From positions 1-64,000 of IMG/VR virus record IMGVR_UViG_3300035158_000222: DNA of 64,000 nucleotides. One strand, written 5' to 3'. A model generated the notes under the pieces. It was not told the origin of the DNA. It worked only from the letters and a program-made list of their open reading frames with translations, and did not search any database. The position numbers were made by a program, and so were the translations under genes. The DNA comes from a virus. Shown here piece by piece: positions 1-24,517 of the stretch. Within the stretch, counting starts at the first letter, position 1, and the number at the start of each line of letters is the position of its first letter.

Positions 1-335
1 ATGGGTAGTTCGTACGGGTATGTCTTGCCAGGTTTTTTGCCCCTGTCAAGAAGATATACGAACTCTATATTATATAATTCTGTTAAAGATTCTCTTAGTG
101 TCCGGTAGGGAGCAATGGCTGCGACTATCACGATCTTTGTCTGGCTTAGCCTATGCGCCTCTCGCCCCATGTTCAGGCAGTTCATGTATCTTCCATTCTT
201 TGTGAAGTCCTTGTTATCGGTCTTGGCACGATAGTTGTCTCCGTCTAAAACGATAGAGTTAGGAATCATTTCGTGTAGCTTGTTGGCTAACGTGGTCTTG
301 CCCGCACCACTGTTACCGGAAATCCATAGGATCAT
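1..335 (-). CDS. cysC: Adenylyl-sulfate (APS) kinase, runs off left edge; missing from the ORF track
   Basis: Hand translation from ATG 335: MILWISGNSGAGKTTLA...IVLDGDNYR...NKDFTKNGR...IVAAIAPYRTLR...YPYELP; P-loop, LDGD, (S/A)PY and YExP motifs of APS kinases. Confidence 0.85.
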   Translation of the reverse strand, partial: MILWISGNSGAGKTTLANKLHEMIPNSIVLDGDNYRAKTDNKDFTKNGRYMNCLNMGREAHRLSQTKIVIVAAIAPYRTLRESLTELYNIEFVYLLDRGKKPGKTYPYELP

Positions 336-336
336 A

Positions 337-663
337 TTATTTCTTTTTGTTCCTGATATTTGTGGCAGAGATAGCTTCTATCCCTGGATCCAGACGAATC
401 TCATGGACACCGTAGCCTACTTTTCTCCCGTAGACTACGCCCTCTATATCGGGAATAGTTATTATCTTTAATAAATTGTTTCCTCCAAAGGCCTTGCGTA
501 CCATCTTCTTTCGTTCCTTGTATGTATGCGGATTATCTTTGCTCATCTTTGTATCACGTATTGCAACACAGATAGGCTTCCCAGCATCCAGGAACTTCTT
601 CACGAAAGCTTCATGGCCTTTGTGGAATGGTTGAAATCGACCTATATATAGATAGTATTTCAT
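337..663 (-). CDS. Single-domain HIGH-type nucleotidyl/cytidylyltransferase
   Basis: GRFQPFHKGH motif, NPH...ER, C-terminal ISATNIR. Confidence 0.8.
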   Translation of the reverse strand: MKYYLYIGRFQPFHKGHEAFVKKFLDAGKPICVAIRDTKMSKDNPHTYKERKKMVRKAFGGNNLLKIITIPDIEGVVYGRKVGYGVHEIRLDPGIEAISATNIRNKKK

Positions 664-764
664 AGCTTACGCTTCTTTATCTTTTCTACTAGCCAGCCTA
701 TACAGCAAATAAACAACATTGCTAAATAGGCTAGCGCTACTATTAATATGAATTTAAAACACAT
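660..764 (-). CDS. Small membrane protein (34 aa)
   Basis: MCFKFILIVALAYLAMLFICCIGWLVEKIKKRKL; ATGA overlap with next gene. Confidence 0.4.
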   Translation of the reverse strand: MCFKFILIVALAYLAMLFICCIGWLVEKIKKRKL

Positions 765-767
765 ATG

Positions 768-841
768 TGGGCATGATAGGATTCGAACCTATGGTCTTCT
801 GCTTAAAAGGCAGTTGCTTTAACCAGCTAAGCTACACACCC
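768..841 (-). tRNA. tRNA-Lys(UUU)
   Basis: GGGTGTG/CATGCCC acceptor, CT-TTT-AA loop, GGTTCGAATCC T-arm. Confidence 0.93.
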
Positions 842-847
842 AACAGG

Positions 848-932
848 CGGAGAAAGAAGGATTCGAACCTTCGTAGGCGTTAACCTAGTCTCTGGTTAGC
901 AACCAGGCCCCTTTCCACTCGGGCATTTCTCC
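848..932 (-). tRNA. tRNA-Ser(GCU)
   Basis: GGAGAAA/TTTCTCC acceptor, TT-GCT-AA loop, long variable arm, G73. Confidence 0.92.
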
Positions 933-1023
933 TGGCGGAAGGGGTGGGATTCGAACCCACGGGGCTTTGACACCTCACTGGTTTTCAAGGCCAGCTCCTT
1001 AAGCCAGACTCGGACACCCTTCC
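933..1023 (-). tRNA. tRNA-Ser(UGA), CCA encoded
   Basis: GGAAGGG/CCCTTCC acceptor, CT-TGA-AA loop, long variable arm, ends GCCA. Confidence 0.92.
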
Positions 1024-1024
1024 G

Positions 1025-1098
1025 TACGGGAGGTGAGATTCGAACTCACACTGGACAGGTTTTAAGCCTGTTGTCTCTACCGGTTGGACTACTCCCGC
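1025..1098 (-). tRNA. tRNA-Leu(UAA), short variable loop
   Basis: ACAGG-CTTAAAA-CCTGT anticodon arm, 5-nt variable region, A73. Confidence 0.9.
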
Positions 1099-1104
1099 TA
1101 TATG

Positions 1105-1178
1105 TACGGGAGGTGGGACTCGAACCCACAAATTTCTGGTCCTAAGCCAGCTGCCTATTCCAATTCGGCTACTCCCGC
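1105..1178 (-). tRNA. tRNA-Leu(UAG), short variable loop
   Basis: CT-TAG-GA loop, GTGGG-TTCGAGT-CCCAC T-arm. Confidence 0.9.
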
Positions 1179-1187
1179 ATATATAAG

Positions 1188-1261
1188 TACACGGGAGAGG
1201 AGTCGAACCTCTACTGTCTAGGTTTTGAATCTAGTGCCTCTACCTATTGGGCTACCCGTGC
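1188..1261 (-). tRNA. tRNA-Leu(CAA), short variable loop
   Basis: TT-CAA-AA loop, AGAGG-TTCGACT-CCTCT T-arm. Confidence 0.88.
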
Positions 1262-1362
1262 ATGTGTAAAGAACAAACTTAAGTCAAGCTACTGAGCAAA
1301 CTCAGTAACGAGGATAATGACTTAAGTTTTAATACACGAGTATTCATAATAATTAATGTTAG

Positions 1363-1436
1363 TCGCGGCGGTGGGATTCGAACCCACGTCCTCGAAGTTA
1401 TGAGCTTCGCGAGCTGCCAGACTGCTCTACACCGCA
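1363..1436 (-). tRNA. tRNA-Met(CAU), initiator-like
   Basis: CGAAG-CTCATAA-CTTCG arm; GAGC/GCTC D-stem and weak 1:72 pair as in fMet tRNAs. Confidence 0.88.
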
Positions 1437-1440
1437 ATAA

Positions 1441-1507
1441 TGGAGCGGGCTACAGGATTTGCACCCGCCTTAAGGTGGTACCTTAAGTACCGCTACGATT
1501 CGCCCGC
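1441..1507 (-). ncRNA. Miniature tRNA-Gly-like RNA (67 nt) or degenerate tRNA
   Basis: GCGGGC/GCCCGC acceptor, U73-CCA, T-arm GCGGG-TGCAAAT-CCTGT, shrunken D arm, 7-bp stem with TACCA loop. Confidence 0.6.
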
Positions 1508-1695
1508 CTTGTAAGCGGATCTCGTTCTCTGTTACAGAAGTGGCAATAGCGCTTATCTTCGTTCCCATCCAGGTAATGTCCTTGGATATAACAATCGTTT
1601 CCGTGTATGCTACACATTACTTTGCCACAGTTGGCACACTTTACTTGGAATGAACAATACAGACATCTAGTAGTTAATACTGAATCTTTCTTCAC
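1483..1695 (-). CDS. Small Cys-rich zinc-finger protein
   Basis: CxxC, CxxC, CxxH, CxxC; 3' end overlaps the tRNA-like element. Confidence 0.5.
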   Translation of the reverse strand: MKKDSVLTTRCLYCSFQVKCANCGKVMCSIHGNDCYIQGHYLDGNEDKRYCHFCNRERDPLTRRANRSGT

Positions 1696-1785
1696 ATCTA
1701 CTCCTTTGGCACATCGATATGTGCTGTACGCTCAGGGCCCTTGGGATCGTCTTTGACAATAGCCATGACTCTCTTGTGGCCCTTC

Positions 1786-2205
1786 TTAACTGGTTTGTGT
1801 TTTAGTTTTCTTTTGTGCTCGCTTATTATTTGAACGATTTGCATATCTCTTGAAGGCACCGCATTTAGACATGTGGCTGCGATACTTAGGGCCTAATGTT
1901 TTCTTAAGATTAAACTTGAACATTCTGTCGTTGAGCTTCTTGTTCTCCTGTAGCTTTGTCTTTGTATATCTGTGCAGGTCTACTATCTGTCTTGCCGGTA
2001 TTCGGTTAGTGCTGACGTATTCCCAGTATGTATGGTCATATGGTAGCTTGATCGATACTGCGAAGACATGTGTGCCTCCGTAGTGAACAGCGTCCTCGAG
2101 ATGATTCGCGAAGAATGTACCTCGTTTGAATCCCTCCTTTAGTATAATAGCAGCAGTCTTCTTGTCTGTGCCGTGATAAAACTTCTTCCAATATATCTCG
2201 CTCAT
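1786..2205 (-). CDS. ADP-ribosyltransferase-fold protein
   Basis: FYHGT...AAIILKEGF...GTFFA...A.HYG pattern of HYE-clade ART domains. Confidence 0.55.
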   Translation of the reverse strand: MSEIYWKKFYHGTDKKTAAIILKEGFKRGTFFANHLEDAVHYGGTHVFAVSIKLPYDHTYWEYVSTNRIPARQIVDLHRYTKTKLQENKKLNDRMFKFNLKKTLGPKYRSHMSKCGAFKRYANRSNNKRAQKKTKTQTS

Positions 2206-2233
2206 AAGGATGGTAAAGTCTAGAATGAATTAG

Positions 2234-2509
2234 TTAGTTATCTTTTCTATTATCCTGCTCTGGTGTGGTTGCGGCCATTGGCTGATCGCAGCGGTCTCTC
2301 ATTTTCTTTAGTGATAGCTCGTATTCGTCCGGATCCATCTTTCGTATCTCTTTGATTACGCTCTCTAGGATCTCGTAAGCTTTAACGATCTGTGATCTGA
2401 CTACTGCAGCTCGTGTGCGGGCAATCAGTCTATGTCTCAACTCGTCATCATATTGGCGCTTGAGCTTTTCCTCCTTAGTAAGGCCCTCAGGCTTTAGAAT
2501 ATTTCCCAT
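2234..2509 (-). CDS. Hypothetical protein (helical)
   Basis: ORF on coding strand with TATG start context. Confidence 0.6.
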   Translation of the reverse strand: MGNILKPEGLTKEEKLKRQYDDELRHRLIARTRAAVVRSQIVKAYEILESVIKEIRKMDPDEYELSLKKMRDRCDQPMAATTPEQDNRKDN

Positions 2510-2524
2510 ATACTCTATTGTATT

Positions 2525-3165
2525 AACCTACATCTTCCATGTAGGCGACTCCACCATTCTCATGGTGACATATGTACTGATAATACAGGGCATTTGGTAT
2601 CCTACCGGGACTTCCCAGTCTTATACCCGTATAGAATCAAATACCCGAAAGTATCAATATACATGCAATGAGATCCCCGCCTATCTGCAATTCTTCGGGC
2701 AAACTGGCCCTCCCGATTCATTTCAGGCATAGGACGCCGCGTGATAGTAAAGAGACAGGGGAGCTCACTACATACGTAGTTCTTTGCTGGCCTCACCGGA
2801 GATCTTCGACCTATCAGCCCTGTCACGAATGACAGAGCAGGGCCACCGTAGTGTAATGGCTAACACTCGGAAGATCCACCACCCAATCGTGAAGGGCTGG
2901 AGAGTGTGGAGAGGTTTAAAGCAAACGACTCCGGTTCCCACCACCACCCCTTCTAGTTATTACTCCATGAAAGGGCTGATATACCAAAGCGTAGAACTCC
3001 GCATACGTTCGGACTTCTACGTCTAGGTACATACTAGCTGGTTAACACACCTACTTTCCGCAATATCTCCGGGCCAGCGCCGTCTATCCGGCCGCTTTCT
3101 TAAGCTAGCTATCGACAAGAAACGTACGCTCCTCGAGACAGGTGACGCAAGATGTGATTGTTTGA
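2525..3165 (-). ncRNA. Large structured ncRNA candidate (~640 nt)
   Basis: Gene-free gap with nested helices; G-U pairs and GAGA/GGGA/UUCG loops work on minus strand only. Confidence 0.7.
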
Positions 3166-3167
3166 TT

Positions 3168-3671
3168 TCAGTATATGTACCCCAGGATCCTAGGGTCATC
3201 TAGTGAGAGTTCTCGTTTGGAAATAACATATCGGCCTAAGAAGTTTTGTTCGCTGATATGTATATGATCGTCATGTACATCTTCAACAACAGCAACATGG
3301 CCGCGAGACTCATTGGTAATTACCATGCCTCCGATAATAGGAACGGTGCTGGTTGAGTAACCTTCTTCCTTTGCCCACTTGAGGAAATATCTAGCCCAAC
3401 CATAGAGCTGGATACCGGTCCTATAGCGCGCATATGGTACGCATGTTCCGTTACCGAAATACTTGACTTGTTGTAATGGACGTGGATCTGGTCTTTTTAT
3501 GGTACGTAGAAGAACTGGAGCTTTAATAGTTCCGTAATCCCAGGCGCATGTAGTACATGGTTCTTTCATAATTGCAAATCCTGGGCTTACTGCTGTCGGA
3601 AATAATATGCCAATAACTATCAGGAGTATGAATCTTTTGATGCCTATAATAGGCAATGGATCTTCATCCAT
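3168..3671 (-). CDS. CHAP-domain amidase with N-terminal membrane anchor
   Basis: GTCVPYAR (catalytic Cys), GHVAVVE (His), ISEQNF; hydrophobic N-terminus. Confidence 0.88.
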   Translation of the reverse strand: MDEDPLPIIGIKRFILLIVIGILFPTAVSPGFAIMKEPCTTCAWDYGTIKAPVLLRTIKRPDPRPLQQVKYFGNGTCVPYARYRTGIQLYGWARYFLKWAKEEGYSTSTVPIIGGMVITNESRGHVAVVEDVHDDHIHISEQNFLGRYVISKRELSLDDPRILGYIY

Positions 3672-3825
3672 ATAGTATTAGTCAAGTCCATTGGCCGCTT
3701 AGCATCCGCAATCCTCTTTGTACACTCACGAGGAAGGGACACTAGGCACACGATGGACGCGACCCAAGCAGCTCCGAGTTCAATTCTCGGCCGGTAGTAT
3801 AATGGATAAAACGCGAGACCTGCTG
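3672..3825 (-). ncRNA. Structured 5' leader / small RNA
   Basis: Nested helices GTCCAT/ATGGAC, TAGTGTCC/GGATGCTA, TCCTC/GAGGA; begins at predicted TSS. Confidence 0.55.
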
Positions 3826-3831
3826 TGTAAC

Positions 3832-3860
3832 ATTATAGCAAACATGTATGCTTTTGTAAA
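3832..3860 (-). promoter_or_regulatory. Sigma70 promoter
   Basis: TTTACA-17 nt-TATAAT. Confidence 0.75.
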
Positions 3861-4034
3861 TTAGAATTCCATGAGTTCCAGCCTCTCCCGTAACCTTAGG
3901 TAAATTTCAGGCGGGAGTAGGAACCGGATTTCTTCCACAGAATAAGGCGAGTCGTCGCTTAATATCTCTATTCTACCGCCCCGGAGATGTTGGTAATCCG
4001 GGTTCATGATAGCTTCTTCTACAAAGCTGAGCAT
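3861..4034 (-). CDS. Hypothetical protein
   Basis: C-terminal part of ORF 3861..4199 from MLSFVEE, abutting upstream stop. Confidence 0.5.
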   Translation of the reverse strand: MLSFVEEAIMNPDYQHLRGGRIEILSDDSPYSVEEIRFLLPPEIYLRLRERLELMEF

Positions 4035-4038
4035 GTAT

Positions 4039-4341
4039 TTAGGTATTAAGTTGGAATCCTGTTTTTTTGTAAACAGTAACAAGATGTTTCTGGGAATAAC
4101 CCAGTTTAGTATTCCATTTAGCTTCGAAGACGAAGATGTATCCGCTGAATAAGCGATAGATCCTACTGCCTCCGTGTCTTTGTCTCTTTTTGTTGACATA
4201 CTCTTCTTTGATTTCCTCCCGGCTATTCCATGCTTTAGTTGTAATTTTTAGGAGCTTGTCCTTATTACATTTGAACCGCAGCTTCAGCTTCTGTTCGGCA
4301 TGGGAAGTGATAACAAACTCGGGAGGAAGAGAAGTTTGCAT
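4039..4341 (-). CDS. RelE/DUF4258-like small RNase-fold protein
   Basis: ITSHAEQKLKLR N-terminus and LVTVY C-terminus. Confidence 0.5.
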   Translation of the reverse strand: MQTSLPPEFVITSHAEQKLKLRFKCNKDKLLKITTKAWNSREEIKEEYVNKKRQRHGGSRIYRLFSGYIFVFEAKWNTKLGYSQKHLVTVYKKTGFQLNT

Positions 4342-4438
4342 CGTAGCACCTCACACCTTGCAGTTCTTTTCGATTAGTTCCTTCAGGCGCTGTCGCACAA
4401 CGCCTGATATATTATTAATCCTCATATTAACGCCACAG

Positions 4439-4538
4439 TTTACTCCGTCTGCTTAGTAAAGCCTGTAGAGGCAGTACCTCACAGCCCCACCGAAAGAATA
4501 GCGATGCCGTTCCAAGGTGGCCAGAGTAAGCACTGACG
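4439..4538 (-). promoter_or_regulatory. Structured intergenic RNA element (three-way junction)
   Basis: Helices 4446-4455/4527-4538, 4463-4471/4477-4484, 4487-4491/4516-4520. Confidence 0.45.
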
Positions 4539-4910
4539 TCAATAGAGGCTACCTCCTTCCGGTAGGGTACAATTATGTCTCCTACCGTCGAGGCATTCCT
4601 GTCTAAGTTGTGAAAATTTCACGAGAGCTTCCATTATTGTCTCGTATCCATGGGCTTCTATTATCCGGTCTATACCGATATCTTTCATGTGAACCTCTAC
4701 CTTACAGTCGCCACAGTCAGAGCACTTACTGATTGTTATTTTGTACCACGGATATTCCTGTCGAATAAATTCTTCGCATTTAACTATGTCATATTTACAT
4801 GGTTCTGCTTGGGAAATCTTTCTCCACATATAATTATCTTGATAGATCTGGTCCACAATTTTGTTCATGAATAATCTGTGGCTAAAGCTTGCGTCTAGCA
4901 TATTCGGCAA
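4539..4910 (-). CDS. Hypothetical protein
   Basis: ORF on coding strand; start uncertain. Confidence 0.55.
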   Translation of the reverse strand: MPNMLDASFSHRLFMNKIVDQIYQDNYMWRKISQAEPCKYDIVKCEEFIRQEYPWYKITISKCSDCGDCKVEVHMKDIGIDRIIEAHGYETIMEALVKFSQLRQECLDGRRHNCTLPEGGSLY

Positions 4911-5394
4911 TTAGTATGGCATCTGTCATGCCGTCATGTATCTTGGTACAGCGAGCTGACTTCTTGAATGTAATATCTGGGAACAGCTGCTGTGCTATAA
5001 GTTTGGAATGGTCCTTGGGCTTACCCTTGGGTAGGCCTTTGAACATCTCCTTCTGCCACTCTCGTGGCATTACTATAGTATACGGAAGGTTTAAGCCAGC
5101 GCATATTCCTTCAAGCTGACCGAATCCCTGTCCGATAGTGAAAGTAGAAGATACGCCTTGCTTAGGCATCGCACGCTGATGTTCTATCGCAATTATAGCT
5201 ACGGTCTTATCACATTGAAAGTCGTATGATGATGCCCATCCAAATAGAAGGGAAGATATCTCTCTTAGGTTGAGGCGGTTCTTCGTACCTATTTTGATTG
5301 TTGACATAACGTCTAGGTATACCATCTTGCCCTTCTTGTCCAGGCAGGCTATACCTCCGTTAATGCCAGGATCTATTCCTATATAAAGTTTCAT
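4882..5394 (-). CDS. RuvC-like Holliday junction resolvase
   Basis: YIGIDPG, IE, QGVSSTFTIG, PREWQK, DGMTDAILIA. Confidence 0.88.
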   Translation of the reverse strand: MKLYIGIDPGINGGIACLDKKGKMVYLDVMSTIKIGTKNRLNLREISSLLFGWASSYDFQCDKTVAIIAIEHQRAMPKQGVSSTFTIGQGFGQLEGICAGLNLPYTIVMPREWQKEMFKGLPKGKPKDHSKLIAQQLFPDITFKKSARCTKIHDGMTDAILIAEYARRKL

Positions 5395-5406
5395 ATTGAA
5401 AATTTG

Positions 5407-5495
5407 AGTTACTAGGAGGATTGAATTCTAATCCAGATGAGGATCCCGCGTTGCGCAGGACTCTGTCGAAGCTGGCTCCCCGCCCCCTAGTAACT
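5407..5495 (-). other. Intergenic fold closed by a 10-bp perfect inverted repeat
   Basis: AGTTACTAGG (5407-5416)/CCTAGTAACT (5486-5495) with internal hairpins. Confidence 0.55.
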
Positions 5496-5504
5496 AAAGA
5501 TCGA

Positions 5505-5696
5505 TCAGCAGCCGTACGGAAATGTCCAGGGCAACGTCTTGCTCTTGATGTGATTCGGATCGTCGCAGTCGATACAGACCCAGGCCTTTATAGTAATAAC
5601 GACAGTACAGTTCTCCGTACATAAGCCGTCGATCTTGTGATCTCTTACTCTGGTAAAGAGCGTTTTCTTTTCCTCGCCACATACATAGCATTTCAT
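5505..5696 (-). CDS. Small zinc-ribbon protein
   Basis: MKCYVCG...CIDC. Confidence 0.55.
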   Translation of the reverse strand: MKCYVCGEEKKTLFTRVRDHKIDGLCTENCTVVITIKAWVCIDCDDPNHIKSKTLPWTFPYGC

Positions 5697-5768
5697 TCTT
5701 CATCGTCCTCCTTCTTCTTAAAATCGTACACATAGATCTCACCGCAGAAATTGCAGTTCCATACTTCT

Positions 5769-6209
5769 TTAACTTTCTTGTTCTGCTTTGTCAGCTTGTG
5801 AAATCTTAGTGGCCACTCGCACTTGTCGCACCAGTGAACATCTTTCAGACTCATCTAATACCTCCTTAAAATGTGATTCGTAATATGTTCCTATGAATTG
5901 TATGTCGAGCTCATTGAGCTTATAGCCTTGTGCCCTGGTTAGGGCAATGTATGTCTTGCGCAGAAGTGCTACTTCATATTCACGATGGTGTAATAAGCCG
6001 TTATCAAGATGGCAACCGCGATTGTGCATAGGTGCTGAGTTAAGGATGGATCCATTGAAGTCTCCGTGTCTGTGCTCGTATGAGCTTGGTGATATTATAT
6101 GATGAAGGCAGTCCCACTTGTTTTGTCCGCACCACATGCAGCGGTACCAGAACATCCATGCTTCTATATCGTTAGGACTGAACCTGTATTGCAGGCCTGT
6201 GTTTTTCAT
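5769..6209 (-). CDS. HNH/NinG-like nuclease-fold protein
   Basis: CMWCG...HHI...N..P.H..CH. Confidence 0.6.
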   Translation of the reverse strand: MKNTGLQYRFSPNDIEAWMFWYRCMWCGQNKWDCLHHIISPSSYEHRHGDFNGSILNSAPMHNRGCHLDNGLLHHREYEVALLRKTYIALTRAQGYKLNELDIQFIGTYYESHFKEVLDESERCSLVRQVRVATKISQADKAEQES

Positions 6210-8716: not shown

Positions 8717-9616
8717 TTAGTATCGTAACAGGAGCCTGACTGCATCATCGAAGCTCATGTTCTTGGATTCTACTATGAATTGTATAGTATCTCCGTTCCA
8801 TCCGCAACCATGGCAGTGAGCCCTGTTAGTATTATTATATATTGTAAAACTAGGATTCTTCTCGTTATGAAAGGGACATAGTGCCTGAGAATAGCCTGAG
8901 AGCTCCTGTGCTTTGATTAGAGAGCCGTAGGGCACTTTCCTGGCCTGAGCCTTCATTTCGGCTGTAATATGCCTAGAATCGGCTTGTGTGCCCTCGTAGT
9001 AAGCGATAGAACCACGGTTGGATTTAAGTTCTTTGTACAGTTTCTCAATATTTGACATGCTTTTAGCCACATTTACGAACCAACTAGGGCTATCCATCTC
9101 ATGTAATATGCGAAGATTAGTCTTTATTTCCTCTATCTGCGAACTTAAGTTCGCGTTTTCTTCCTTGAGGTACATAATCCTGGCCTTTTTCATGTCTGGT
9201 CCTATATCCGATAGGAAGATATCATCTCGGAATTCGGCCATTGCTGACTGAAGTTCGTGCTCATCCTGCGGCCGGTTCTTTGCCAGCTTACCAAGACTGT
9301 TGGTAGTATAGATATCATCCCACTCTTCCCAGTATCTTTTAAACCATTCGATAAAATCCTCCCAGTGATAGTTTTTAGCCATACGCTCAAGGCCCATTAT
9401 TGTACTATGTTTAACTACATAGCTTTCGTTGGTGATCTTCTGTGTTACCCAATGCATTGTCTGTCTGGCATCTTTACGATAGAACTCCAGCAACTTCCTG
9501 GACACGAAGCCGTCCTCAGATATCGGACCCATGAATCCGGTATCACGCAGTACAAGTTGTTTGCCGGGCCTTTCGAGAATTTCGAATAAGTGGCCCAGTC
9601 CAAAATAAATGTTCAT
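8717..9616 (-). CDS. Protein with C-terminal CHC2 (primase-type) zinc finger
   Basis: LCPFHNEKNPSF...HCHGCGWNGDTIQF. Confidence 0.85.
   Translation of the reverse strand: MNIYFGLGHLFEILERPGKQLVLRDTGFMGPISEDGFVSRKLLEFYRKDARQTMHWVTQKITNESYVVKHSTIMGLERMAKNYHWEDFIEWFKRYWEEWDDIYTTNSLGKLAKNRPQDEHELQSAMAEFRDDIFLSDIGPDMKKARIMYLKEENANLSSQIEEIKTNLRILHEMDSPSWFVNVAKSMSNIEKLYKELKSNRGSIAYYEGTQADSRHITAEMKAQARKVPYGSLIKAQELSGYSQALCPFHNEKNPSFTIYNNTNRAHCHGCGWNGDTIQFIVESKNMSFDDAVRLLLRY
9140..9153. repeat. Palindrome CGAACTTAAGTTCG copy 1 (in CDS)
   Basis: Exact; extends to 16 bp (9139-9154). Confidence 0.95.
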
Positions 9617-11459: not shown

Positions 11460-12290
11460 TTAGGCTTTTAATGTCTTCTCTTCTTCCGCGCTTATAGCGG
11501 GAATAAGTAATTTACTTGCGTACGTAAGTAAAACCATCTTGCCCATTACACCTGTCTCACGCTGCTTAATAATGTGAACCTCAGTGTTGTTGGTGAAATC
11601 GTACTTACGTGACGACCATCCTTTGAGCTTCTGCGGTTGCCTGTGTATGGCATATACCGCATCAGATTCCTGTGCTATCCAGGATGAGTCACGCAACGAG
11701 GACATGGTCGGAGCTGTCGGAACCTTGCTCATATCAGGCGGTTGCTTGGTATGCGCGCAAAGAAAGATAGCAACGTCCAAGTCCTTGGTCATTTGTTTTA
11801 AAGTTCTCATTACATGGCCTACGCGATTAGTGTATCTGGTTCTGTCGTCTGTATCGTCTATACCTATAACATAATGCAGATGGTCTATAAATACAACCCT
11901 GGCTTCGAATTTATCTATTCCTTCCTGTATCTTCTTCGCTAGCCACTCAAGGTCGTATGGTTTATTTTTCTTCGGGATGAAGAAGTTCGGTAATGGATCG
12001 GGGAAGTGCCTGAACAGCTGCCTATATGGTACTTCGTATGAGATAAATGTGACAGCCATTCCTTGTCTGGCCAGATTACTGATAAGAGTTTGGCAGAACG
12101 TAGTCTTTCCGAACCCGCTGTATCCAGTAACCGTGACGAGCTCACCGGTAGCAAATCCGTTCGTATAGTAATCCAGGTTCTCTATTCCAAACTTTAACTG
12201 CGGAGTCTGTGGTGTCTGCTTCAGGGCTTCATGCATATCATTAGAGCTAACAAGTCTATCTTCTCCGTTATAGTTCTTTAGTTTGCTCAT
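11460..12290 (-). CDS. DnaB-like replicative helicase (RecA domain only)
   Basis: GYSGFGKT, ISYEV, VFIDHLH, LRDSSWIAQESD, KQR. Confidence 0.9.
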   Translation of the reverse strand: MSKLKNYNGEDRLVSSNDMHEALKQTPQTPQLKFGIENLDYYTNGFATGELVTVTGYSGFGKTTFCQTLISNLARQGMAVTFISYEVPYRQLFRHFPDPLPNFFIPKKNKPYDLEWLAKKIQEGIDKFEARVVFIDHLHYVIGIDDTDDRTRYTNRVGHVMRTLKQMTKDLDVAIFLCAHTKQPPDMSKVPTAPTMSSLRDSSWIAQESDAVYAIHRQPQKLKGWSSRKYDFTNNTEVHIIKQRETGVMGKMVLLTYASKLLIPAISAEEEKTLKA

Positions 12291-17593: not shown

Positions 17594-20500
17594 TTATTTT
17601 TTATAAATCTTTAATGGATAACCCATACCGGCTCCTAATCCGAATCCCAGATGCTGCTGTTCTCTATCCAGTGTTATAGTTCCAGCGAACCCGGAACTAA
17701 TTGTTCTCATCGCATCCATTTCACCAGCGAATCCGGCTTCTTCTTCCTGTATTAGCAGGGCATCGCCCGTAAAGGCCGCAGAAACGGTCCTTAGGAGACT
17801 AGAATCCGCGGTCCATTGTCTCTGTTCTACTGCCTTCAAGGAGGCATCAGACGAGAAGTCGGCCCCCACAGTCCGCAAGAGACTTGAGTTGCTGCTGAAC
17901 TGGACCTCTGCTACTACATATAGGTTGGCATCTGCAGTGAACATGTCAGCTACAGTGCGCATGATAGACGCATCTCCTGATATGCTATCGGATATTACTC
18001 TTAACAGACTTGCATTGGCGTTGAATATCACATTTGTAGTCTTCACCAGGTTAGCATCGCCATTAAACTGATTTTCTTCTAGTTTGTACAGATTAGCATC
18101 ACCAGTAAATGTGTCTATTATCACCTTATTCAGACAGGAGTCTGCAGTAAACGTTGTACTTAGTATCTTCAGTAAGACCGCTCCGCCGGAGAACTGGTCT
18201 GATACAGACCGTTTCAGGTTACCATCTGCGGTTATAGTGAATGGCAGTACTGCGATGAGGTTAGCGTCTCCGATAAAGGAATCTGCTACCGTCCGTAGGA
18301 GGCTGCAGTCAGCGCTGAACTGCGCGTCAACCACCTTCTTCAAAGAAGAGTCTGAAGTGAATTGATTCTGTATTATAGCCAGTATTGCCGCATCACCAGA
18401 GAATGTAGCCGTTACTGTAGCTTTCAGATTAGCGTCACCTTCCCAGTAGAAGGCGCCTAGAGCTAGAATGCTGGCATCTCCAGTCCAGGAATTTGAGACA
18501 GTCTTCACAAGGTTACAGTCCCCTGACCAGTAATCTGTACCGATTCCCCTGATAGACGCGTCACCAGTAAAGCTGTTCGTGATAACTCTAAGTAGGCTTG
18601 AATCGCTGCTAAATACTGTAGCTTCTGTAGATATCAGACTAGCGTAACCTGTGAATACGGCGCCTACGACTCTTAATAGGTTAGAATTTGAACTGAAAGT
18701 ACCCAATTCTGATGACTTACAGTTCGCATTTCCGGTAAAGGAGCCATAAACTGTCGCCAGAAGATTCGCATCAGACAACACTGTCAGAGCTATTGTTCTT
18801 AGGAGACTACTATCCCCGCTGAACTGGTCCGTAATTATAGTCCTTAGATTAGCATCTGATGTATATGACGAACTTAAGTTCGCGAGTAGGTTAGAATCGG
18901 CCGTAAACGATGTAAGCACTATGCGCAACAGCACAGCATCTGCGGTTATTGACTGCGTTATTACCGCTTTTAGGCTAGCATTAGATGTAAATATATCAGA
19001 AGCAGTTCGTAACAAGTTGGCGCTACCAGAGAAGGACGTCTGTACTGCTGCAGTAAGGCTAGCATCCGCAGTTAGGGACAACTCTACAACACGCAATATG
19101 CTTGCTTGGGACGAGAACTGCTGACTTATGGTCTTCAATAAGCACCCATTACCTGTAAAAGTCGTCGCTATTCCAGCCTGTAGACTGGCATCAGAAGTGA
19201 ATGTATTAGAGACCAGTTTTACAAGATTAGCGTTTCCGCTAAATTGCGAGACTATATCAACTGCTTCAAGATTGGCATCTCCGTAGAAGAATACTGTCGG
19301 TATTATAAGTAGATTCGAATCACCAGAGAATTGCTGGCTTACCTGTCTCAGGAGAGACGCGTTACCGGTAAATGTATTACCGATAACTTTTAGCAGTACG
19401 GCATCCACGGTCCATGAAGCTACTTCTGTCTTAAACAGATTCGCATCTGAACTGAAGGTATTTGCCGTCTCGACCTGCAGATTAGCATCTCCAGTGAACT
19501 GCTGCGCGATCACTCTGAGCAGACTAGCATCACTGCTAAATGTATTTACAAGCAGCTTAAGCAGAGAAGCATCTCCATAGAAGATATTCTGTTCTATGCT
19601 AAGCAGACTAGCATCTGAGCTAAACTGGGCAGCTACGACTTTCAGTAGGCTTGCATCACCAGACACTGTATTCTGTACTGCCTTGTACAGGTTAGAGTCA
19701 CCACTGAAGCTGGCGCTTACTTCGCGCTTCAGGTTAGCATCAGAAGAGAATTGCTGTGATGGCGTTGAAGTTAGGTTGGCATCACCTGTAAACTGTACAG
19801 AAATTGCACCGGTTAGGTTCGCATCGGCAGTCCACGACTGTGTTACTATGTGTAACAAGCTGGCATCTGCCGCAAATGTATCAGAGATTACTCTCTTCAA
19901 ACTTGAATCAGAGGTGAGAGTAAAGCTCACTTCCAGTTTAAGATTCGCATCTGAGGTAAACACATTCGATAATGTTTCTATCAGATTAGCATCTCCGCTG
20001 AAGGTAGCGCTGACTATACGCAGCAGGCTGGCATCAGATGTATATGTCTGTAATATACCGACCTTAAGACTTGAATCACCGCTAAATGTGGCAGACACGT
20101 TCTTCTTTAAGTTAGTATCACCAGAGAAAGTATTTACTCCAACCTTCTTCAGGCTGGCATCACCACTGAACGTTGCAGATACTATCTTCCTTAGATTTGC
20201 GTCAGCAGTATATGAGTCTATGTGATGTGTCGAAATGTCAAGTAGTGTACCGTATTGGCTGCCATATGCCCATGCCGGGAACAATCCTCTCAGCTCCTCG
20301 CTGTAAAGGTATGAATCGCCAGAGAAAGTATTCTGCTCCGCACCGGTCAAGTTAGCATCGCCCGTAAATGTGTCTATATAGGTGTTAATCAAAAACGTGT
20401 CAGAAGTGAAGGAGTTCTCAACTACTAATAGGAGCGAAGAACTGCCGCTGAATGTATTCGCCTCTGTATCTGTCAGATTCGCATCACCTACAAAGCTTTG

Positions 20501-23500
20501 TACAACCGTGCCAACGAGATTAGCGTCTCCGCTAAGGATATTAGAGATGGCCAATCTCAGGTTGGCATCGGCTGTGAGCACAAGATATAGTATTTTCTTT
20601 AGACTTGCATCTGCAGAAAACACCTGATCGATTTGTTTTTGTAGGTTCGCGTCCCCGGCAAAAGAGTTCTGTATTGCTCTCTTTATACTACAATCACCAG
20701 TAAACGCCTGCGAAATTGTTGCTGTTAGGTTTGCATCACCAGTCCATGCATTACTTTCGACTGACTTCAAGGATGCATCACCACTAAAGCTGCTTGTAAT
20801 TTCGGACCTTGTAAGGTTCGCGTCCGCATTGAAGGACGCAGCCAGTACCGCTTTCAGGGAGGCATCTCCCGCGAAAGTAGTACCGACAACATACTTCAAT
20901 GAAGCATCACCTGTAATACTTTGTATTACAGTAGTTTTAAGATTAGAGTCACCTGTAATGAGGCTCTGTACGGCCCTCAGAAGGCTTGAATCACCTGATA
21001 TGGTATCAGACACCACCCTAAGTAGATTCGCGTCGCTACGGAGCTCCTGTGGCGTTATACGCAATAGTGAGGAATCACCTGTGAATTGCCCTAATTCTAT
21101 TGACTTTAGTGAAGCACTTCCCGTAAACACTGCAGTTACTACCCGTAACAGCGAACTGCCGCCTGTAAAGCTCGTAATTTCCTCTGATCTTAGCGAAGCA
21201 TCACCTACGAATGTATTAGATATATTAATTAGTAAACTTGCATCTCCGGTAAAGACAGTAGATACACCGCCCACGAGGTTTGCGTCCCCGCCGAATGAGG
21301 CTGTTATCACCTTGAGAAGTGATCCGTCAGCCACGAACGTCGTCGATTCTATAGACTTCATACTGGCATCACCAGTAAAACTGTCTGTTATATCGATCTT
21401 TTTCAGGTTAGCATCCGACGTTAATGTATTGGTTTCTTCACCGGTTAGATTCGCATCGCCTGTGAATGATTCTAATTGTATCATTTTGAGGCTCGCATCG
21501 CCCGTAATCGTATCATAAATGATACGCTTTAGGCTCGCAGATGATACGAATGTATCTGAAATTGTGATCAATAGACTGGCATCGGCCGTAAACTGTGCAG
21601 ATTCTGCACCGATTAGATTTGTATCGGCTGAGAATGTAGCGCTTACTTCTTTCTTCAGGTTACCGTCACCATAATAGAATACTGTCGGGACAATAAGAAG
21701 GTTACCGTCACCATAGAATGTGGCGGTTATTTCTTTCAGAAGACTGGCGTCAGCTGTTGCAGAATTTGCAACTACTCCTACTAAGTTAGCATCACCGGTG
21801 AAGTTGGCACTTACGATCCGCAAGAAAGAACCATCCGATACAAATGTATTGGATAGTACCCTCTTAAGAGAACCGTCACCCGTGAATGTATCTTGTATAT
21901 CAGTCTTCTTTAAATTTGAGTCTCCACTGAATGAATCTACTTCAGCTGTTGTCAGATTAGAATCACCCGCAAACGAAACGTTTACAGTTGTAAACAGATT
22001 GGTATTACCAGAGAATGTAGCACTTACTACGCGCTTAAGAGACGCATTACCTGTGAAGGTATCAGTCCCCTCTATCTTCAGACTGGCATCTCCGTAGAAA
22101 AATACTGTAGGTACAAACAAGAGATTACCATCGCCTGAGAATGCAGTGCTCACTGCGCCTACCAAGTTAGCATGTCCGTGGAAATCAACAGATACTTCGC
22201 CCACTAGATTAGAATCTCCGGAGTATGTATCTGTGGTTATTCTGAGTAGACTGGCATCAGAACTGAATGTATCCGATAGGGCTATGAGTAGACTAGCATC
22301 TCCATAGAATGGCGTCTCATATGAGTTGATCAATACAGTATCACCAGAGAAGGTAGACTCCTCGGTCTTAAGTAGGTTAGTATCGCTAGAGAATGTATCA
22401 GATTCTATGCTCTTCAAGTTAGCATCACCGTAGAATGGTGAGTCAAGGATGTTTCTTAGATTAGCATCCCCGGAGAATGTGGCTGCTATGTTCGTGATCA
22501 GCATTGCATCTCCCGTGAAGTCGTCCAAGTATGTATCTGTATCTGTGGGATCGCCTTCTAGTACAAATGTGTTGGGAGTCTTCTGGTTATTGTATGCAGC
22601 ATTGATCCATTCATCATCCTCCCTAGAATCCATGACCCACATTTCGTCGATCATTCCGTCCATCCAGTGACCATCACTATTAGAGGAACCAATTCTGAAT
22701 TCAAAGTCAGAGTTCTCTATAGAGCTCACGTTAGTTCCGTTCTGAGTAGATCCCTGCTGTGAACCGTCTACATAGAACTTAAAGTCCTTAGTAGCTCCAC
22801 CTATCCATGTAGCTGCTAGGTGATACCAGGTGGTAGCAGACGGACTCCAGTTAACAAGAGCATCGTCTTCACCGGGACCGTGCTCGTAGGGATTCATTCT
22901 GAATCTATAGTTAACTCCGTTGTAGTTATGACTCCATGTATATGCTCTTTTGCCCTCGGCTCCGACAGTATTGTATTTGCTCAAAAGTCCGAATGTCTGT
23001 CCACTCGTAGGTAGTGTCTCTATCTTATTCCAGCATAGGAACGTATGTTCTGTAGTCAGGTCCAGTCCTTGCTGATTAGCATTTGTTATATATAGGTGTT
23101 CGTTGTTAGATCGTTCAAAGTCTCCGGCTGTATCTATTTGTCCACTTGAAGAGCTCTGCACAGTATTATAATCAGTAAGATCATTCTGGTTTCTAGTACT
23201 ATCGGACCTTGTTCCGGATGTTTCGTCCAGGTGCCAGACGCCCTTGAAGTTGTCGTTCCATACGTTAAAACTTCCATATATACCTTCTTCGTGTGGCTGT
23301 GTCTTACCCGATTTGTTATACCATACATAGATATTTGTATTGGTAGAGCTTGATATGCTTGGTACCTTGACCCAGACCTGAGCCGTTCCGTTAGCCGGGT
23401 CTATGTCAGTAGTAAATTCCCTCACCTCGCAAGGTAGGATATTAGTACCGGCAGCATCAGAGCTAAACCGGATGTCACCACCGCCATTGAGCGCGGGGTA

Positions 23501-24517
23501 GCTTCCGTCAGAGTCGAACATCTCAGATGGTAGCGTTGTCTCATCCAGTAGGACGGGGAAATCTGTTAGGGTAGAATCTACCTTGCTTGACTGGATAGTA
23601 AGCTTACACTTCCTGCCCCAGTCCTGTAGATCTTCAGATGGTTCCGTTATAAGTACTTGGTCACCATATGTCTGGTGGACTGAACTATTGGACAGACATA
23701 AACGAAGTCTTGTGAACTGGTTATTTGTTCTATTCCGCATAAAGTTTATCCAGCTCGTCCAGGTTCCATCGTTTATGTTCGCCCTATACTGATGTGTAGT
23801 AAAGTTCCATTGGACAGTAAGCTTGTGCCAGGTATTTGTAGCTAGTCCTGTAGCAACGTCTACGTAGTCAGTATCATAGATTCTCCACCTTCCTGGATTT
23901 CCTTCGTATCTAGTCCACAGTACTTGCGTAGCACCGTCAAAGAGATGGAAGTGAACCTCACCTCCGGCACCGGCACACTTGCCCCAGTATGTCATTTCGT
24001 AGTTATCGGTATTAGTATCCTGTGTTATAGCAGTACGGAATGTATAGTCAAGCTTATCATCGCCGGCAGTAGTATTCGTGATACACTTGTCTGAGCTCTC
24101 TGCACCGTCTGTATCTATTATGTCTACATCGGTAGAACCTGACCAGCGCTTCTGACCATTGGCATCTCCGTTTGTCATATCATCAAAGGTTTCCTGGAAC
24201 ACCACAATCTTACCTACAAGGCTTGAATCTCCCGTAAAGGTATTCGGTTCTGTTTTGATTAGGTTAGCATTAGATGTAAATGTGCTGGCTATCTCTTTGA
24301 TGAAATAGCAATCGCCCGTGAACGAGTCCGAGTGTTCTTGGCTCAGACTCGCATCACCGGAGTATGTACTGGAGACAGTGCTTAGCAAACTAGCATCTGC
24401 AAGCATTGTATTATCTACGACCCGTGTCAGGCTCGCATTTGATGTGAAGGTTGCTGTCTGTTGATCAGACAGCCAGCCGCCATAAGATTGTGAGCCATAG
24501 GGCTGTCTTCCGTACAT
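17594..24517 (-). CDS. 2307-aa virion fibre protein: lectin-like, DUF2341-like and LamG domains plus >100 FxGDAxL repeats
   Basis: LTDFPVLL, GGDIRF, VWVKVP, GVWHL, WYHLAATW, FYVDG, GMIDEMW; 14-aa period. Confidence 0.85.
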   Translation of the reverse strand: MYGRQPYGSQSYGGWLSDQQTATFTSNASLTRVVDNTMLADASLLSTVSSTYSGDASLSQEHSDSFTGDCYFIKEIASTFTSNANLIKTEPNTFTGDSSLVGKIVVFQETFDDMTNGDANGQKRWSGSTDVDIIDTDGAESSDKCITNTTAGDDKLDYTFRTAITQDTNTDNYEMTYWGKCAGAGGEVHFHLFDGATQVLWTRYEGNPGRWRIYDTDYVDVATGLATNTWHKLTVQWNFTTHQYRANINDGTWTSWINFMRNRTNNQFTRLRLCLSNSSVHQTYGDQVLITEPSEDLQDWGRKCKLTIQSSKVDSTLTDFPVLLDETTLPSEMFDSDGSYPALNGGGDIRFSSDAAGTNILPCEVREFTTDIDPANGTAQVWVKVPSISSSTNTNIYVWYNKSGKTQPHEEGIYGSFNVWNDNFKGVWHLDETSGTRSDSTRNQNDLTDYNTVQSSSSGQIDTAGDFERSNNEHLYITNANQQGLDLTTEHTFLCWNKIETLPTSGQTFGLLSKYNTVGAEGKRAYTWSHNYNGVNYRFRMNPYEHGPGEDDALVNWSPSATTWYHLAATWIGGATKDFKFYVDGSQQGSTQNGTNVSSIENSDFEFRIGSSNSDGHWMDGMIDEMWVMDSREDDEWINAAYNNQKTPNTFVLEGDPTDTDTYLDDFTGDAMLITNIAATFSGDANLRNILDSPFYGDANLKSIESDTFSSDTNLLKTEESTFSGDTVLINSYETPFYGDASLLIALSDTFSSDASLLRITTDTYSGDSNLVGEVSVDFHGHANLVGAVSTAFSGDGNLLFVPTVFFYGDASLKIEGTDTFTGNASLKRVVSATFSGNTNLFTTVNVSFAGDSNLTTAEVDSFSGDSNLKKTDIQDTFTGDGSLKRVLSNTFVSDGSFLRIVSANFTGDANLVGVVANSATADASLLKEITATFYGDGNLLIVPTVFYYGDGNLKKEVSATFSADTNLIGAESAQFTADASLLITISDTFVSSASLKRIIYDTITGDASLKMIQLESFTGDANLTGEETNTLTSDANLKKIDITDSFTGDASMKSIESTTFVADGSLLKVITASFGGDANLVGGVSTVFTGDASLLINISNTFVGDASLRSEEITSFTGGSSLLRVVTAVFTGSASLKSIELGQFTGDSSLLRITPQELRSDANLLRVVSDTISGDSSLLRAVQSLITGDSNLKTTVIQSITGDASLKYVVGTTFAGDASLKAVLAASFNADANLTRSEITSSFSGDASLKSVESNAWTGDANLTATISQAFTGDCSIKRAIQNSFAGDANLQKQIDQVFSADASLKKILYLVLTADANLRLAISNILSGDANLVGTVVQSFVGDANLTDTEANTFSGSSSLLLVVENSFTSDTFLINTYIDTFTGDANLTGAEQNTFSGDSYLYSEELRGLFPAWAYGSQYGTLLDISTHHIDSYTADANLRKIVSATFSGDASLKKVGVNTFSGDTNLKKNVSATFSGDSSLKVGILQTYTSDASLLRIVSATFSGDANLIETLSNVFTSDANLKLEVSFTLTSDSSLKRVISDTFAADASLLHIVTQSWTADANLTGAISVQFTGDANLTSTPSQQFSSDANLKREVSASFSGDSNLYKAVQNTVSGDASLLKVVAAQFSSDASLLSIEQNIFYGDASLLKLLVNTFSSDASLLRVIAQQFTGDANLQVETANTFSSDANLFKTEVASWTVDAVLLKVIGNTFTGNASLLRQVSQQFSGDSNLLIIPTVFFYGDANLEAVDIVSQFSGNANLVKLVSNTFTSDASLQAGIATTFTGNGCLLKTISQQFSSQASILRVVELSLTADASLTAAVQTSFSGSANLLRTASDIFTSNASLKAVITQSITADAVLLRIVLTSFTADSNLLANLSSSYTSDANLRTIITDQFSGDSSLLRTIALTVLSDANLLATVYGSFTGNANCKSSELGTFSSNSNLLRVVGAVFTGYASLISTEATVFSSDSSLLRVITNSFTGDASIRGIGTDYWSGDCNLVKTVSNSWTGDASILALGAFYWEGDANLKATVTATFSGDAAILAIIQNQFTSDSSLKKVVDAQFSADCSLLRTVADSFIGDANLIAVLPFTITADGNLKRSVSDQFSGGAVLLKILSTTFTADSCLNKVIIDTFTGDANLYKLEENQFNGDANLVKTTNVIFNANASLLRVISDSISGDASIMRTVADMFTADANLYVVAEVQFSSNSSLLRTVGADFSSDASLKAVEQRQWTADSSLLRTVSAAFTGDALLIQEEEAGFAGEMDAMRTISSGFAGTITLDREQQHLGFGLGAGMGYPLKIYKK
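18869..18882. repeat. Palindrome CGAACTTAAGTTCG copy 3 (in CDS)
   Basis: Exact. Confidence 0.95.

Follow-up and report, generated by a model that had tools for sequence, protein, structure and literature searches.

A strongly folded non-coding segment with a conserved inter-ORF hairpin between an amidase gene and the tRNA cluster of an uncultured phage

Bacteria and phages have few large structured RNAs whose job is not known, and GOLLD, ROOL and OLE have each opened unexpected biology. ROOL and GOLLD are large ornate RNAs (Rfam; Weinberg et al. 2017, PMC5737381; Kretsch et al., bioRxiv 10.1101/2024.12.08.627333), often found in phages or prophages near transfer RNA (tRNA) genes, the mean length of ROOL being 581 nucleotides (nt) (PMC5737381). 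The locus considered here resembles them in several respects: it is a gap of about 0.6 kb in a phage genome, free of open reading frames (ORFs), strongly folded, situated near tRNA genes of the same strand, with which it may be co-transcribed. It was found in the virus record IMGVR_UViG_3300035158_000222 of IMG/VR (99,954 bp, CheckV completeness 85%), whose first 64 kb constitute the window that we analysed, and it occupies 658 nt (2510-3167) between the gene of a CHAP-domain amidase and an ORF of 91 amino acids (ORF91), both of the minus strand. A preliminary description had proposed that some 640 nt of this gap form one multi-domain structured non-coding RNA (ncRNA), co-transcribed with the amidase gene and perhaps representing a new class. 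Our analysis favors a different reading, to which we assign a probability of roughly one half: the gap is a composite, an untranslated and strongly folded segment of a minus-strand transcript running from the CHAP gene to the tRNA cluster, located in a slot where gene cassettes are swapped. Of its five parts, designated D1 to D5 in the 5' to 3' direction of the minus strand (Table 1), the hairpin D4 has relatives in other phage contigs, and D1-D3 are peculiar to this lineage.

The arguments concerning D4 are comparative. A 32-nt match of this hairpin to the related contig L010 (z score 5.6 against shuffled sequences) provided the lead. Folded independently, the window copy and the corresponding segments of L010 and L006 (the latter the same as in L008) agreed in two basal stems occupying identical alignment columns, and R2, a covariance model derived from the three, found further members in L014 (E 3e-4), L011 (E 0.003) and, weakly, L016. 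With this model the window copy, itself a training sequence, scores 93.8 bits, the two other training sequences 128-132 bits, and the members that did not take part in the training 15-32 bits. In a structure-blind MAFFT alignment of six sequences (A9), 88.7% of the cells pair and 8 of the 18 pairs are compensatory; the covariation score of 0.359, as opposed to 0.193 in shuffles, was reached by none of 500 shuffles, and sliding the partner by 1-3 columns lowered the pairing to 20-51%. The G-U pair of columns 7-116 is invariant in all six sequences, and on the other strand it would become a C-A mismatch, which fits an RNA made from the transcribed strand. The common plan comprises a basal stem P1 of 14 base pairs (bp), an internal loop, the stem P2 of 9 bp and a tip that varies; in the window copy P1 and P2 keep this register on the transcribed strand and show compensatory changes. 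At the level of sequence comparison, D4 is thereby shown to be a member of a conserved, lineage-specific family of inter-ORF hairpins.

The position of these hairpins with respect to genes is also informative. The relatives carry them in the spacers of the variable slot. In L006 and L011 the hairpin begins 15-23 nt past the stop codon of the preceding ORF, and in L010, L016 and L006 a conserved, very basic ORF of 42-44 amino acids with the motif MKK..ANKN..HHVWKW/LLMPYG..KKKY begins with the AUG at P1's 3' end; it is extended at the N- or C-terminus in L006 and L016 and belongs to no Pfam family. The window copy does not share this last feature: its P1 AUG opens three codons only, and a tblastn search of the window with the small basic ORF of L006 returned nothing. 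In this phage D4 is therefore either a relic or has kept another role, for example in processing or stability. Pattern scans of IMG/VR with D4 motifs gave chance matches in coding sequence only (L070, L073-L082). In two of the relatives (L006:7182-7400, equal to L008:1209-1425, and L010:2757-2987) there are successive hairpins that have a near-palindromic core of the GCATATATGC type in common; due to this core, the 3' strand of a stem can also pair as the 5' strand of the following one, giving alternative, mutually exclusive foldings, reminiscent of the logic of an attenuator.

As to the function, we suppose that the D4 family acts in cis as a translational gate or coupling device or, alternatively, as a processing site of the RNase III type. 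The starts inspected lie in A/U-rich ...UAUAUG contexts, so a 14-bp stem over the AUG would be a strong gate, to be opened by upstream ribosomes. In the phage under study the gated small basic ORF would have been lost, leaving the three-codon frame behind. A covarying hairpin family of about 100 nt, placed between the ORFs of a variable region and burying the next start codon in three relatives, is a smaller but solid result. It suggests a way in which translation of phage genes may be gated or coupled where cassettes are swapped and, perhaps, a way in which these cassettes are exchanged.

The gap as a whole is non-coding. TAA, TAG and TGA are all present in each of its six frames, hence no reassignment of a single stop codon opens a frame, and a recoded ORF was rejected. 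The gene caller placed no gene in it; the stop-to-stop peptides have no match in PHROGs, in the loci of relatives or among 5.8 billion proteins, and no conserved protein ORF, which by the preliminary description would remove the ncRNA call, was found. A word search of the same 5.8 billion proteins with the plus-frame peptide did not return even the query itself, which means that this frame has never been called as a gene, and the two ORFs of the gap that start with ATG are absent from a collection of 15 billion proteins, in which the neighbouring ORF91 is present. Codon usage points in the same direction (scores of -0.09 to 0.08 for gap ORFs of at least 41 amino acids and 0.15 for one frame of 37 amino acids, against 0.24±0.08 for long genes), although this test is weakly informative because three real neighbouring genes score equally low.

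Nor does the gap match a known RNA family of Rfam. At gathering thresholds, the matches of Rfam 15 in the window and the remaining genome were tRNAs only; cmscan of a 1.8-kb and a 686-nt segment at E<=10 with permissive filters gave nothing but noise. As far as covariance models can tell, the gap is therefore not GOLLD, ROOL, OLE, HEARO, RNase P, transfer-messenger RNA (tmRNA), 6S or a group I or group II intron; in particular, the candidates HEARO/omega RNA, OLE, 6S and group II intron were rejected on this ground. The earlier failure to assign the region to GOLLD or ROOL is thus upheld, and so is that to find RNase P, tmRNA or intron cores, ARAGORN having detected no tmRNA either. Rfam sees no intron anywhere in this genome, and its sensitivity to introns here may be limited; a group I intron is also contradicted by the CHAP ORF, which is complete to the C-terminus of its family, by the AUG that ORF91 has of its own and by the unmatched model RF00028. 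A link to the VIPR array of this phage was rejected as well, since the vrRNAs are GGY/NN repeats, unlike the gap.

That the gap is strongly folded on the minus strand follows from several measures. RNAfold gives -246.9 kcal/mol (z -6.6 against dinucleotide shuffles) for the minus strand and -195.4 kcal/mol (z -2.3) for the plus strand. Compared with 284 windows of the same size from the same genome, taken on both strands and regressed on GC content, the minus strand of the gap ranks, by a small margin, as the most stable, and the energy difference between its strands (-51.5 kcal/mol) is extreme too, the minimum of this background being -39.5 kcal/mol. Hairpins with a stem of at least 4 bp and a GNRA or UNCG cap number five on the minus strand and none on the plus strand; shuffles contain 0.79 on average and the genome 1.1 per kb (P~0.001). 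The composition is also unusual: the flanks have a GC content of about 0.43 and the gap one of 0.49-0.52, and with its reversed AT skew the gap has a transcribed strand rich in G+U. The helices named in the preliminary description proved real, 2569-2582/2652-2665 pairing in 13 of 14 positions on the minus strand (12 of 14 on the plus strand), 2588-2596/2638-2646 in nine of nine (eight of nine), 2812-2820/2973-2981 in nine of nine and 2990-2996/3015-3021 in seven of seven, with pairing probabilities of 0.88-0.99 for the four by the partition function. The GAGA, GGGA and UUCG caps are found on the minus strand alone, and the preference for this strand that had been noted holds generally, as the helices pair there equally well or better and stable tetraloops and G-U pairs are confined to it. 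The minimum free energy structure, predicted from a single sequence by a method blind to pseudoknots, has a few junctions.

Table 1. Features of the gap, its neighbourhood and the D4 family (positions are those of the window unless a contig is named)
Feature	Positions	Strand	Remarks
D1, 5' leader with small hairpins	3079..3167	minus	z -0.99, not better than shuffles; no homologue
D2, 293-nt multi-branched domain	2786..3078	minus	14-bp closing stem; GC 0.52; helix probabilities 0.92-1.0
D2 core, 10+7-bp long-range stem around two hairpins	2812..2981	minus	z -4.2
D3, weakly folded linker	2669..2785	minus	z -1.05, not significant
D4, conserved hairpin	2566..2668	minus	P1 2652-2665/2569-2582; P2 2638-2646/2588-2596; variable tip with GGGA loop; z -3.0
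D5, two small hairpins	2527..2567	minus	2552-2567 (GAGA loop) and 2527-2546; no U-tract after them
Predicted 8-bp long-range helix, 5' arm	3170..3177	minus	overlaps CHAP stop codon (3168-3170); partner 2507-2514
Predicted 8-bp long-range helix, 3' arm	2507..2514	minus	includes ORF91 AUG (2507-2509)
Start AUG, putative relic	2560..2571	minus	in P1 3' strand; three-codon frame, M-S-P-stop
Predicted sigma-70-like promoter	3832..3860	minus	TTTACA, 17-nt spacer, TATAAT, extended TG; 11/12 consensus positions; upstream of CHAP gene
CHAP-domain amidase gene, 167 amino acids, complete	3168..3671	minus	Pfam CHAP 4.1e-10
ORF91, helical protein, nearly orphan	2234..2509	minus	called as gene; one partial relative, P0015
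Seven-tRNA gene cluster	767..1436	minus	Rfam and ARAGORN; downstream of gap
D4 homologues	L010:2866-2987; L006:7182-7303 (=L008); L014:2968-3070; L011:7254-7367; L016:3019-3131		
Small basic ORF behind the hairpin	L010:2982-3110; L016:3126-3323; L006:7400-7534; L014 ~3095-3230		

Within the 5' part the most conspicuous element is D2, which consists of a hairpin and a 170-nt sub-domain under the 10+7-bp long-range stem and folds on the minus strand with z -5.4. Single-sequence statistics suggest that D2 is a unique, stem-closed RNA domain. The UUCG hairpin (about 2820-2835, 9-bp stem) competes for the bases of the 10-bp stem 2812-2821/2972-2981, and the two predicted structures could possibly constitute a conformational switch. 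In the reading that we prefer, D1-D3 would be a lineage-unique non-coding cassette of foreign composition, built round D2; it is most likely made as RNA, folds stably and either acts as a stable phage RNA or is processed into one. One more element of the model is a perfect 8-bp helix (3170-3177/2507-2514), which brackets the entire gap with a predicted probability of 0.86; a duplex as good as this over the AUG of ORF91 occurs in 0.56% of shuffles (P~0.006). Joining the region of the CHAP stop codon with the ORF91 start, this helix would loop out the whole 658-nt insert, and a ribosome terminating on CHAP would melt it and thus free the start of ORF91, which would amount to translational coupling over a long range.

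The composite reading of the gap draws on the comparison with related contigs, which were assembled from environmental metagenomes. Homologues of CHAP led us to 66 metagenome loci, 13 of which (L004-L016) are close kin with CHAP proteins 46-61% identical to that of the window. Six loci show synteny over the five genes upstream of CHAP; the content downstream of it varies from contig to contig. In L012 a homologue of ORF139 follows CHAP after 37 nt, so relative to this contig the gap together with ORF91 is a variable insert; L006, L008, L014, L011, L013 and L015 have a gene of 157-190 amino acids in the slot after CHAP, and in L010 about 230 nt of non-coding DNA separate CHAP from the small ORF. 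None of the close-kin loci contains a gap of 650 nt. Given this variability, and since the 5' 500 nt have no counterpart, the slot should be considered hyperplastic, and D1-D3 with ORF91 a lineage-unique insert. The size of D1-D3 is about that of the 157-amino-acid gene which fills the slot elsewhere; a pseudogene of this gene was rejected (negative bit scores with the protein hidden Markov model, HMM, and nothing with the DNA HMM), and a search for a relic of any other ORF of the relatives gave no match.

Extensive searches for homologues of D1-D3 remained fruitless. The gap was compared by blastn with INPHARED phages and with plasmids, giving nothing, and is single copy in its own genome. 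Neither nhmmer nor blastn found a counterpart of its 5' 500 nt in 160 loci; six-frame peptide patterns of D2 and D3 gave nothing in IMG/VR, and queries with ORF91, CHAP and ORF146 revealed no additional IMG/VR relatives. A covariance model of the D2 core built from its single sequence (R3) found itself alone in its own genome, 36 loci and G001, a complete relative in which the search by DNA gave nothing either. An apparent similarity between the closing stem of D2 and a segment of L016 was not significant. The single-sequence approach is not powerless, for it recovered true relatives of D4 at E 0.4-4.5, though distant homologues could still escape it. Thus the homologues and covariation that the preliminary description had asked for exist for D4, with its five related contigs, but no homologue of D1-D3 was found.

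How much of the initial proposal survives can now be stated. The region is indeed non-coding and strongly folded on the minus strand, but one homogeneous RNA is not supported: D4 occurs in relatives without D2, and neither D1 nor D3 is significantly structured. The term "new class" is not supported, as no second member of the large domain was found and what is conserved is D4 alone, in the form of a short inter-ORF hairpin. The gap was also called the largest gene-free one, which is true of the window apart from the tRNA cluster, but larger ORF-poor stretches exist elsewhere in the 100-kb record.

It is nevertheless conceivable that the whole of the approximately 640 nt is a single large ornate ncRNA of a new class, similar to GOLLD and ROOL, co-expressed with the tRNAs and acting in trans. 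The length of 658 nt falls in the ROOL range (mean 581 nt, PMC5737381), the element belongs to a phage with tRNA genes close by on the same strand, its fold closes from end to end, tetraloops are enriched, and Rfam families are not matched. On the other side, in those relatives that have conserved flanks D4 stands alone, as a short inter-ORF element, and the 5' 500 nt are missing, D1 and D3 contribute no significant structure, a class with one member is unsupported, and no promoter or terminator of the gap's own rises above chance level. A new giant RNA class is possible; as an account of the entire gap, however, we regard it as unlikely. A related idea, which we put forward only tentatively, as it too seems to us on the unlikely side, is that a new family of large structured RNAs of phages has its first known member in D2, taken with or without D1 and D3, and that the region between a lysis-type amidase gene and a tRNA operon holds it as a non-coding cassette. 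Such an RNA could be highly expressed and act in trans (e.g., as a decoy, a scaffold or a self-assembling RNA like ROOL and GOLLD), and D4 together with the helix from stop to start would link its folding with the translation of the neighbours. If D2 is a real RNA, it is a further uncatalogued example, and one from a phage lineage without a cultured relative.

Another explanation is that the gap is a non-functional leftover, i.e. DNA captured or scrambled during cassette exchange and harmless to the phage, its inverted repeats being incidental and D4 a relic leader of a lost gene. This is in keeping with the high variability of the slot among relatives, the loss of the ORF gated by D4, the orphan character of D1-D3 and of most of ORF91, and the small margin by which the fold exceeds the genome background. 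However, phage genomes seldom retain 500 nt of junk, and z values of -5.4 for D2 and -6.6 overall speak against it, as does a tetraloop asymmetry of five against zero. Besides, the composition is unlike that of the genes of this phage, and there is no trace of the slot's 157-amino-acid gene or of any relative's ORF. Taken together, these facts leave us doubtful about a leftover.

Several observations weigh against the composite, folded and functional segment that we favor. Since D1-D3 have no homologue, they offer no covariation and hence no proof of selection on their fold; only D2 and D4 have separately significant folds, D1 and D3 being at chance (z about -1). In stability the gap exceeds the genome background only slightly (z -2.8 to -3.0, the minimum of the background being -2.4 to -2.65). 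D4 may be a relic, as it gates no ORF in this phage, and the motif of its P1 basal stem is not a genome-wide regulatory signal either, for the position weight matrix counts throughout the genome equal those of shuffles. The 8-bp helix coupling the CHAP stop to the ORF91 start is a prediction from a single sequence. Finally, the helices of D2 are mostly perfect Watson-Crick ones, and its plus strand also folds (z -4.4).

The last two properties of D2 would suit an element acting at the DNA level, namely a small palindromic mobile element resembling a miniature inverted-repeat transposable element (MITE) or a site of recombination or replication, in which the 14-18-bp terminal inverted repeats and nested palindromes function in the DNA itself. 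D2 is indeed 293 bp long and bounded by inverted repeats (GCTGGCCCGGAGAT ... ATCTCCGG-4 nt-GCCAGC), which is one of the properties of MITEs. Two other such properties are missing, as the element is present in a single copy in the genome, with no copies in phages, plasmids, IMG/VR or the fetched loci, and no target-site duplication is visible at its ends. There are no iterons or direct repeats, and stable tetraloops and G-U pairs are confined to the transcribed strand; a DNA element is accordingly improbable. As for missed small or recoded protein genes, the tiling of the gap by minus-strand ORFs of 38-74 amino acids in a phage rich in small genes hardly makes them credible, in view of the three stop codons in each frame, the peptides unmatched in PHROGs, relatives and 5.8 billion proteins, the uncalled ATG-start ORFs and the codon scores, low as these also are in the three real neighbouring genes.

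The genomic setting is compatible with transcription of the gap from the CHAP side. The site upstream of CHAP, predicted by its match to the consensus, is the sole strong candidate promoter in positions 1-6000, and the minus strand showed no terminator-like site within 2500-3200 or between CHAP and ORF91. Together these two facts render co-transcription from CHAP towards the tRNA cluster plausible. The placement of the gap upstream of tRNA genes, claimed earlier, is correct: the seven genes lie about 1.1 kb downstream on the same strand, with protein genes intervening. In the 189-nt gap upstream of CHAP (3672-3860), which holds the promoter (3860-3832), the plus strand contains a canonical T-arm-like motif at about 3767-3787 (stem CCGAG/CTCGG, loop TTCAATT) followed by a D-arm-like stretch; it is called neither by ARAGORN nor by Rfam and, judging from its sequence, may be a tRNA fragment.

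The CHAP protein aligns from end to end with 12 homologues, which likewise end in ...GYIY. Its closest relatives are P0002 (68% identity) and P0006 (a 31.8-kb contig). A profile search of genome-collection contigs gave matches of at most 43% identity in metagenome-assembled genomes (MAGs) of the candidate phyla radiation (CPR) and of alphaproteobacteria, with no close kin among them. The best CHAP-domain matches in this collection (L083-L088, 38-40% identity) are short contigs binned to CPR/Patescibacteria MAGs, namely Peribacteria, Saccharibacteria, Moraniibacteriota and Parcubacteria; Rhizomicrobium and other Alphaproteobacteria come next. All these are too distant for a host call.

The phage belongs to an uncultured lineage with a genome of about 100 kb. 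Its helicase is less than 30% identical to T7-like primase-helicases and most of its large proteins have no PHROG match, which is why we consider it to be without a cultured relative; none was found. All ORFs of the window with at least 250 amino acids are carried by the minus strand. Among the large ones are an ORF of at least 5,906 amino acids (46276-63999), which exits the window end, an ORF of 2,307 amino acids (17594-24517) and one of 1,236 amino acids (27137-30847); the latter, the sole large ORF of this set that was scanned, has no PHROG match. The signature of a primase zinc finger (8717-9616) is found solely at the C-terminus of a 299-amino-acid ORF, and the DnaB-like helicase (11460-12290) is a separate 276-amino-acid ORF about 1.8 kb off, with partial profile coverage, which may point to a split or interrupted primase-helicase. 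An exact copy of the record's final 111 nt (99844-99954) lies at positions 434-544 rather than at its beginning. The record may thus represent a circular genome that was closed at an offset; alternatively, a variant may have contributed its first 433 nt. In either case, the tRNA clusters at 95.6-98.5 kb and 767-1436 are probably neighbours.

Of the known systems, ROOL and GOLLD differ from the gap in that it has no covariance-model match at E<=10 and no family of homologues, and in that significant folding is limited to a sub-domain of 293 nt and a hairpin of 100 nt. There are differences of host range and environment as well, the contigs related to the gap coming from environmental metagenomes and having no cultured relative. 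Species 1 and 2 of phage T4 (rnaC/rnaD) are stable non-tRNA RNAs of a phage tRNA operon. The gap resembles RNAs of this type by its location in an operon ending in a tRNA cluster, its stem-closed fold and its absence from Rfam; in contrast to them, about 1.1 kb and protein genes separate it from the tRNAs downstream, it is much larger and it has no relatives.

The D4 family invites other comparisons. In RNA phage MS2, the coat-replicase "Min Jou" interaction provides long-range translational coupling. As in MS2 and in start-sequestering leaders, a predicted helix here buries a downstream start and should be opened by upstream ribosomes, both in P1 of the D4 family and in 3170-3177/2507-2514; ours is, however, a DNA phage with a loop of 658 nt, and the D4 AUG of the window opens no gene. 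The early mRNA of T7 contains RNase III processing hairpins, e.g. R1.1. D4 as modelled, with a lower and an upper stem separated by a symmetric 5x5-nt internal loop and with its location between cistrons of a polycistronic phage transcript, is similar to such hairpins, but its sequence is unrelated and there is a start codon in its basal stem. In T4-type phages, PeSL cassettes consist of an early promoter and a terminator stem-loop (PMC2839356, PMC4122927). Like them, the hairpins of the D4 family are conserved stem-loops at ORF boundaries of a hyperplastic region and might plausibly serve as a substrate for modular shuffling. Unlike them, the family has no detected promoter or terminator, sites of this kind in the gap not exceeding chance, and its hairpin of about 100 nt has two covarying stems, contains the start codon of the next gene and is restricted to a single locus, with no genome-wide repeat. 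By analogy, then, the D4 family may be expected to work most like start-codon-sequestering leaders or RNase III sites.

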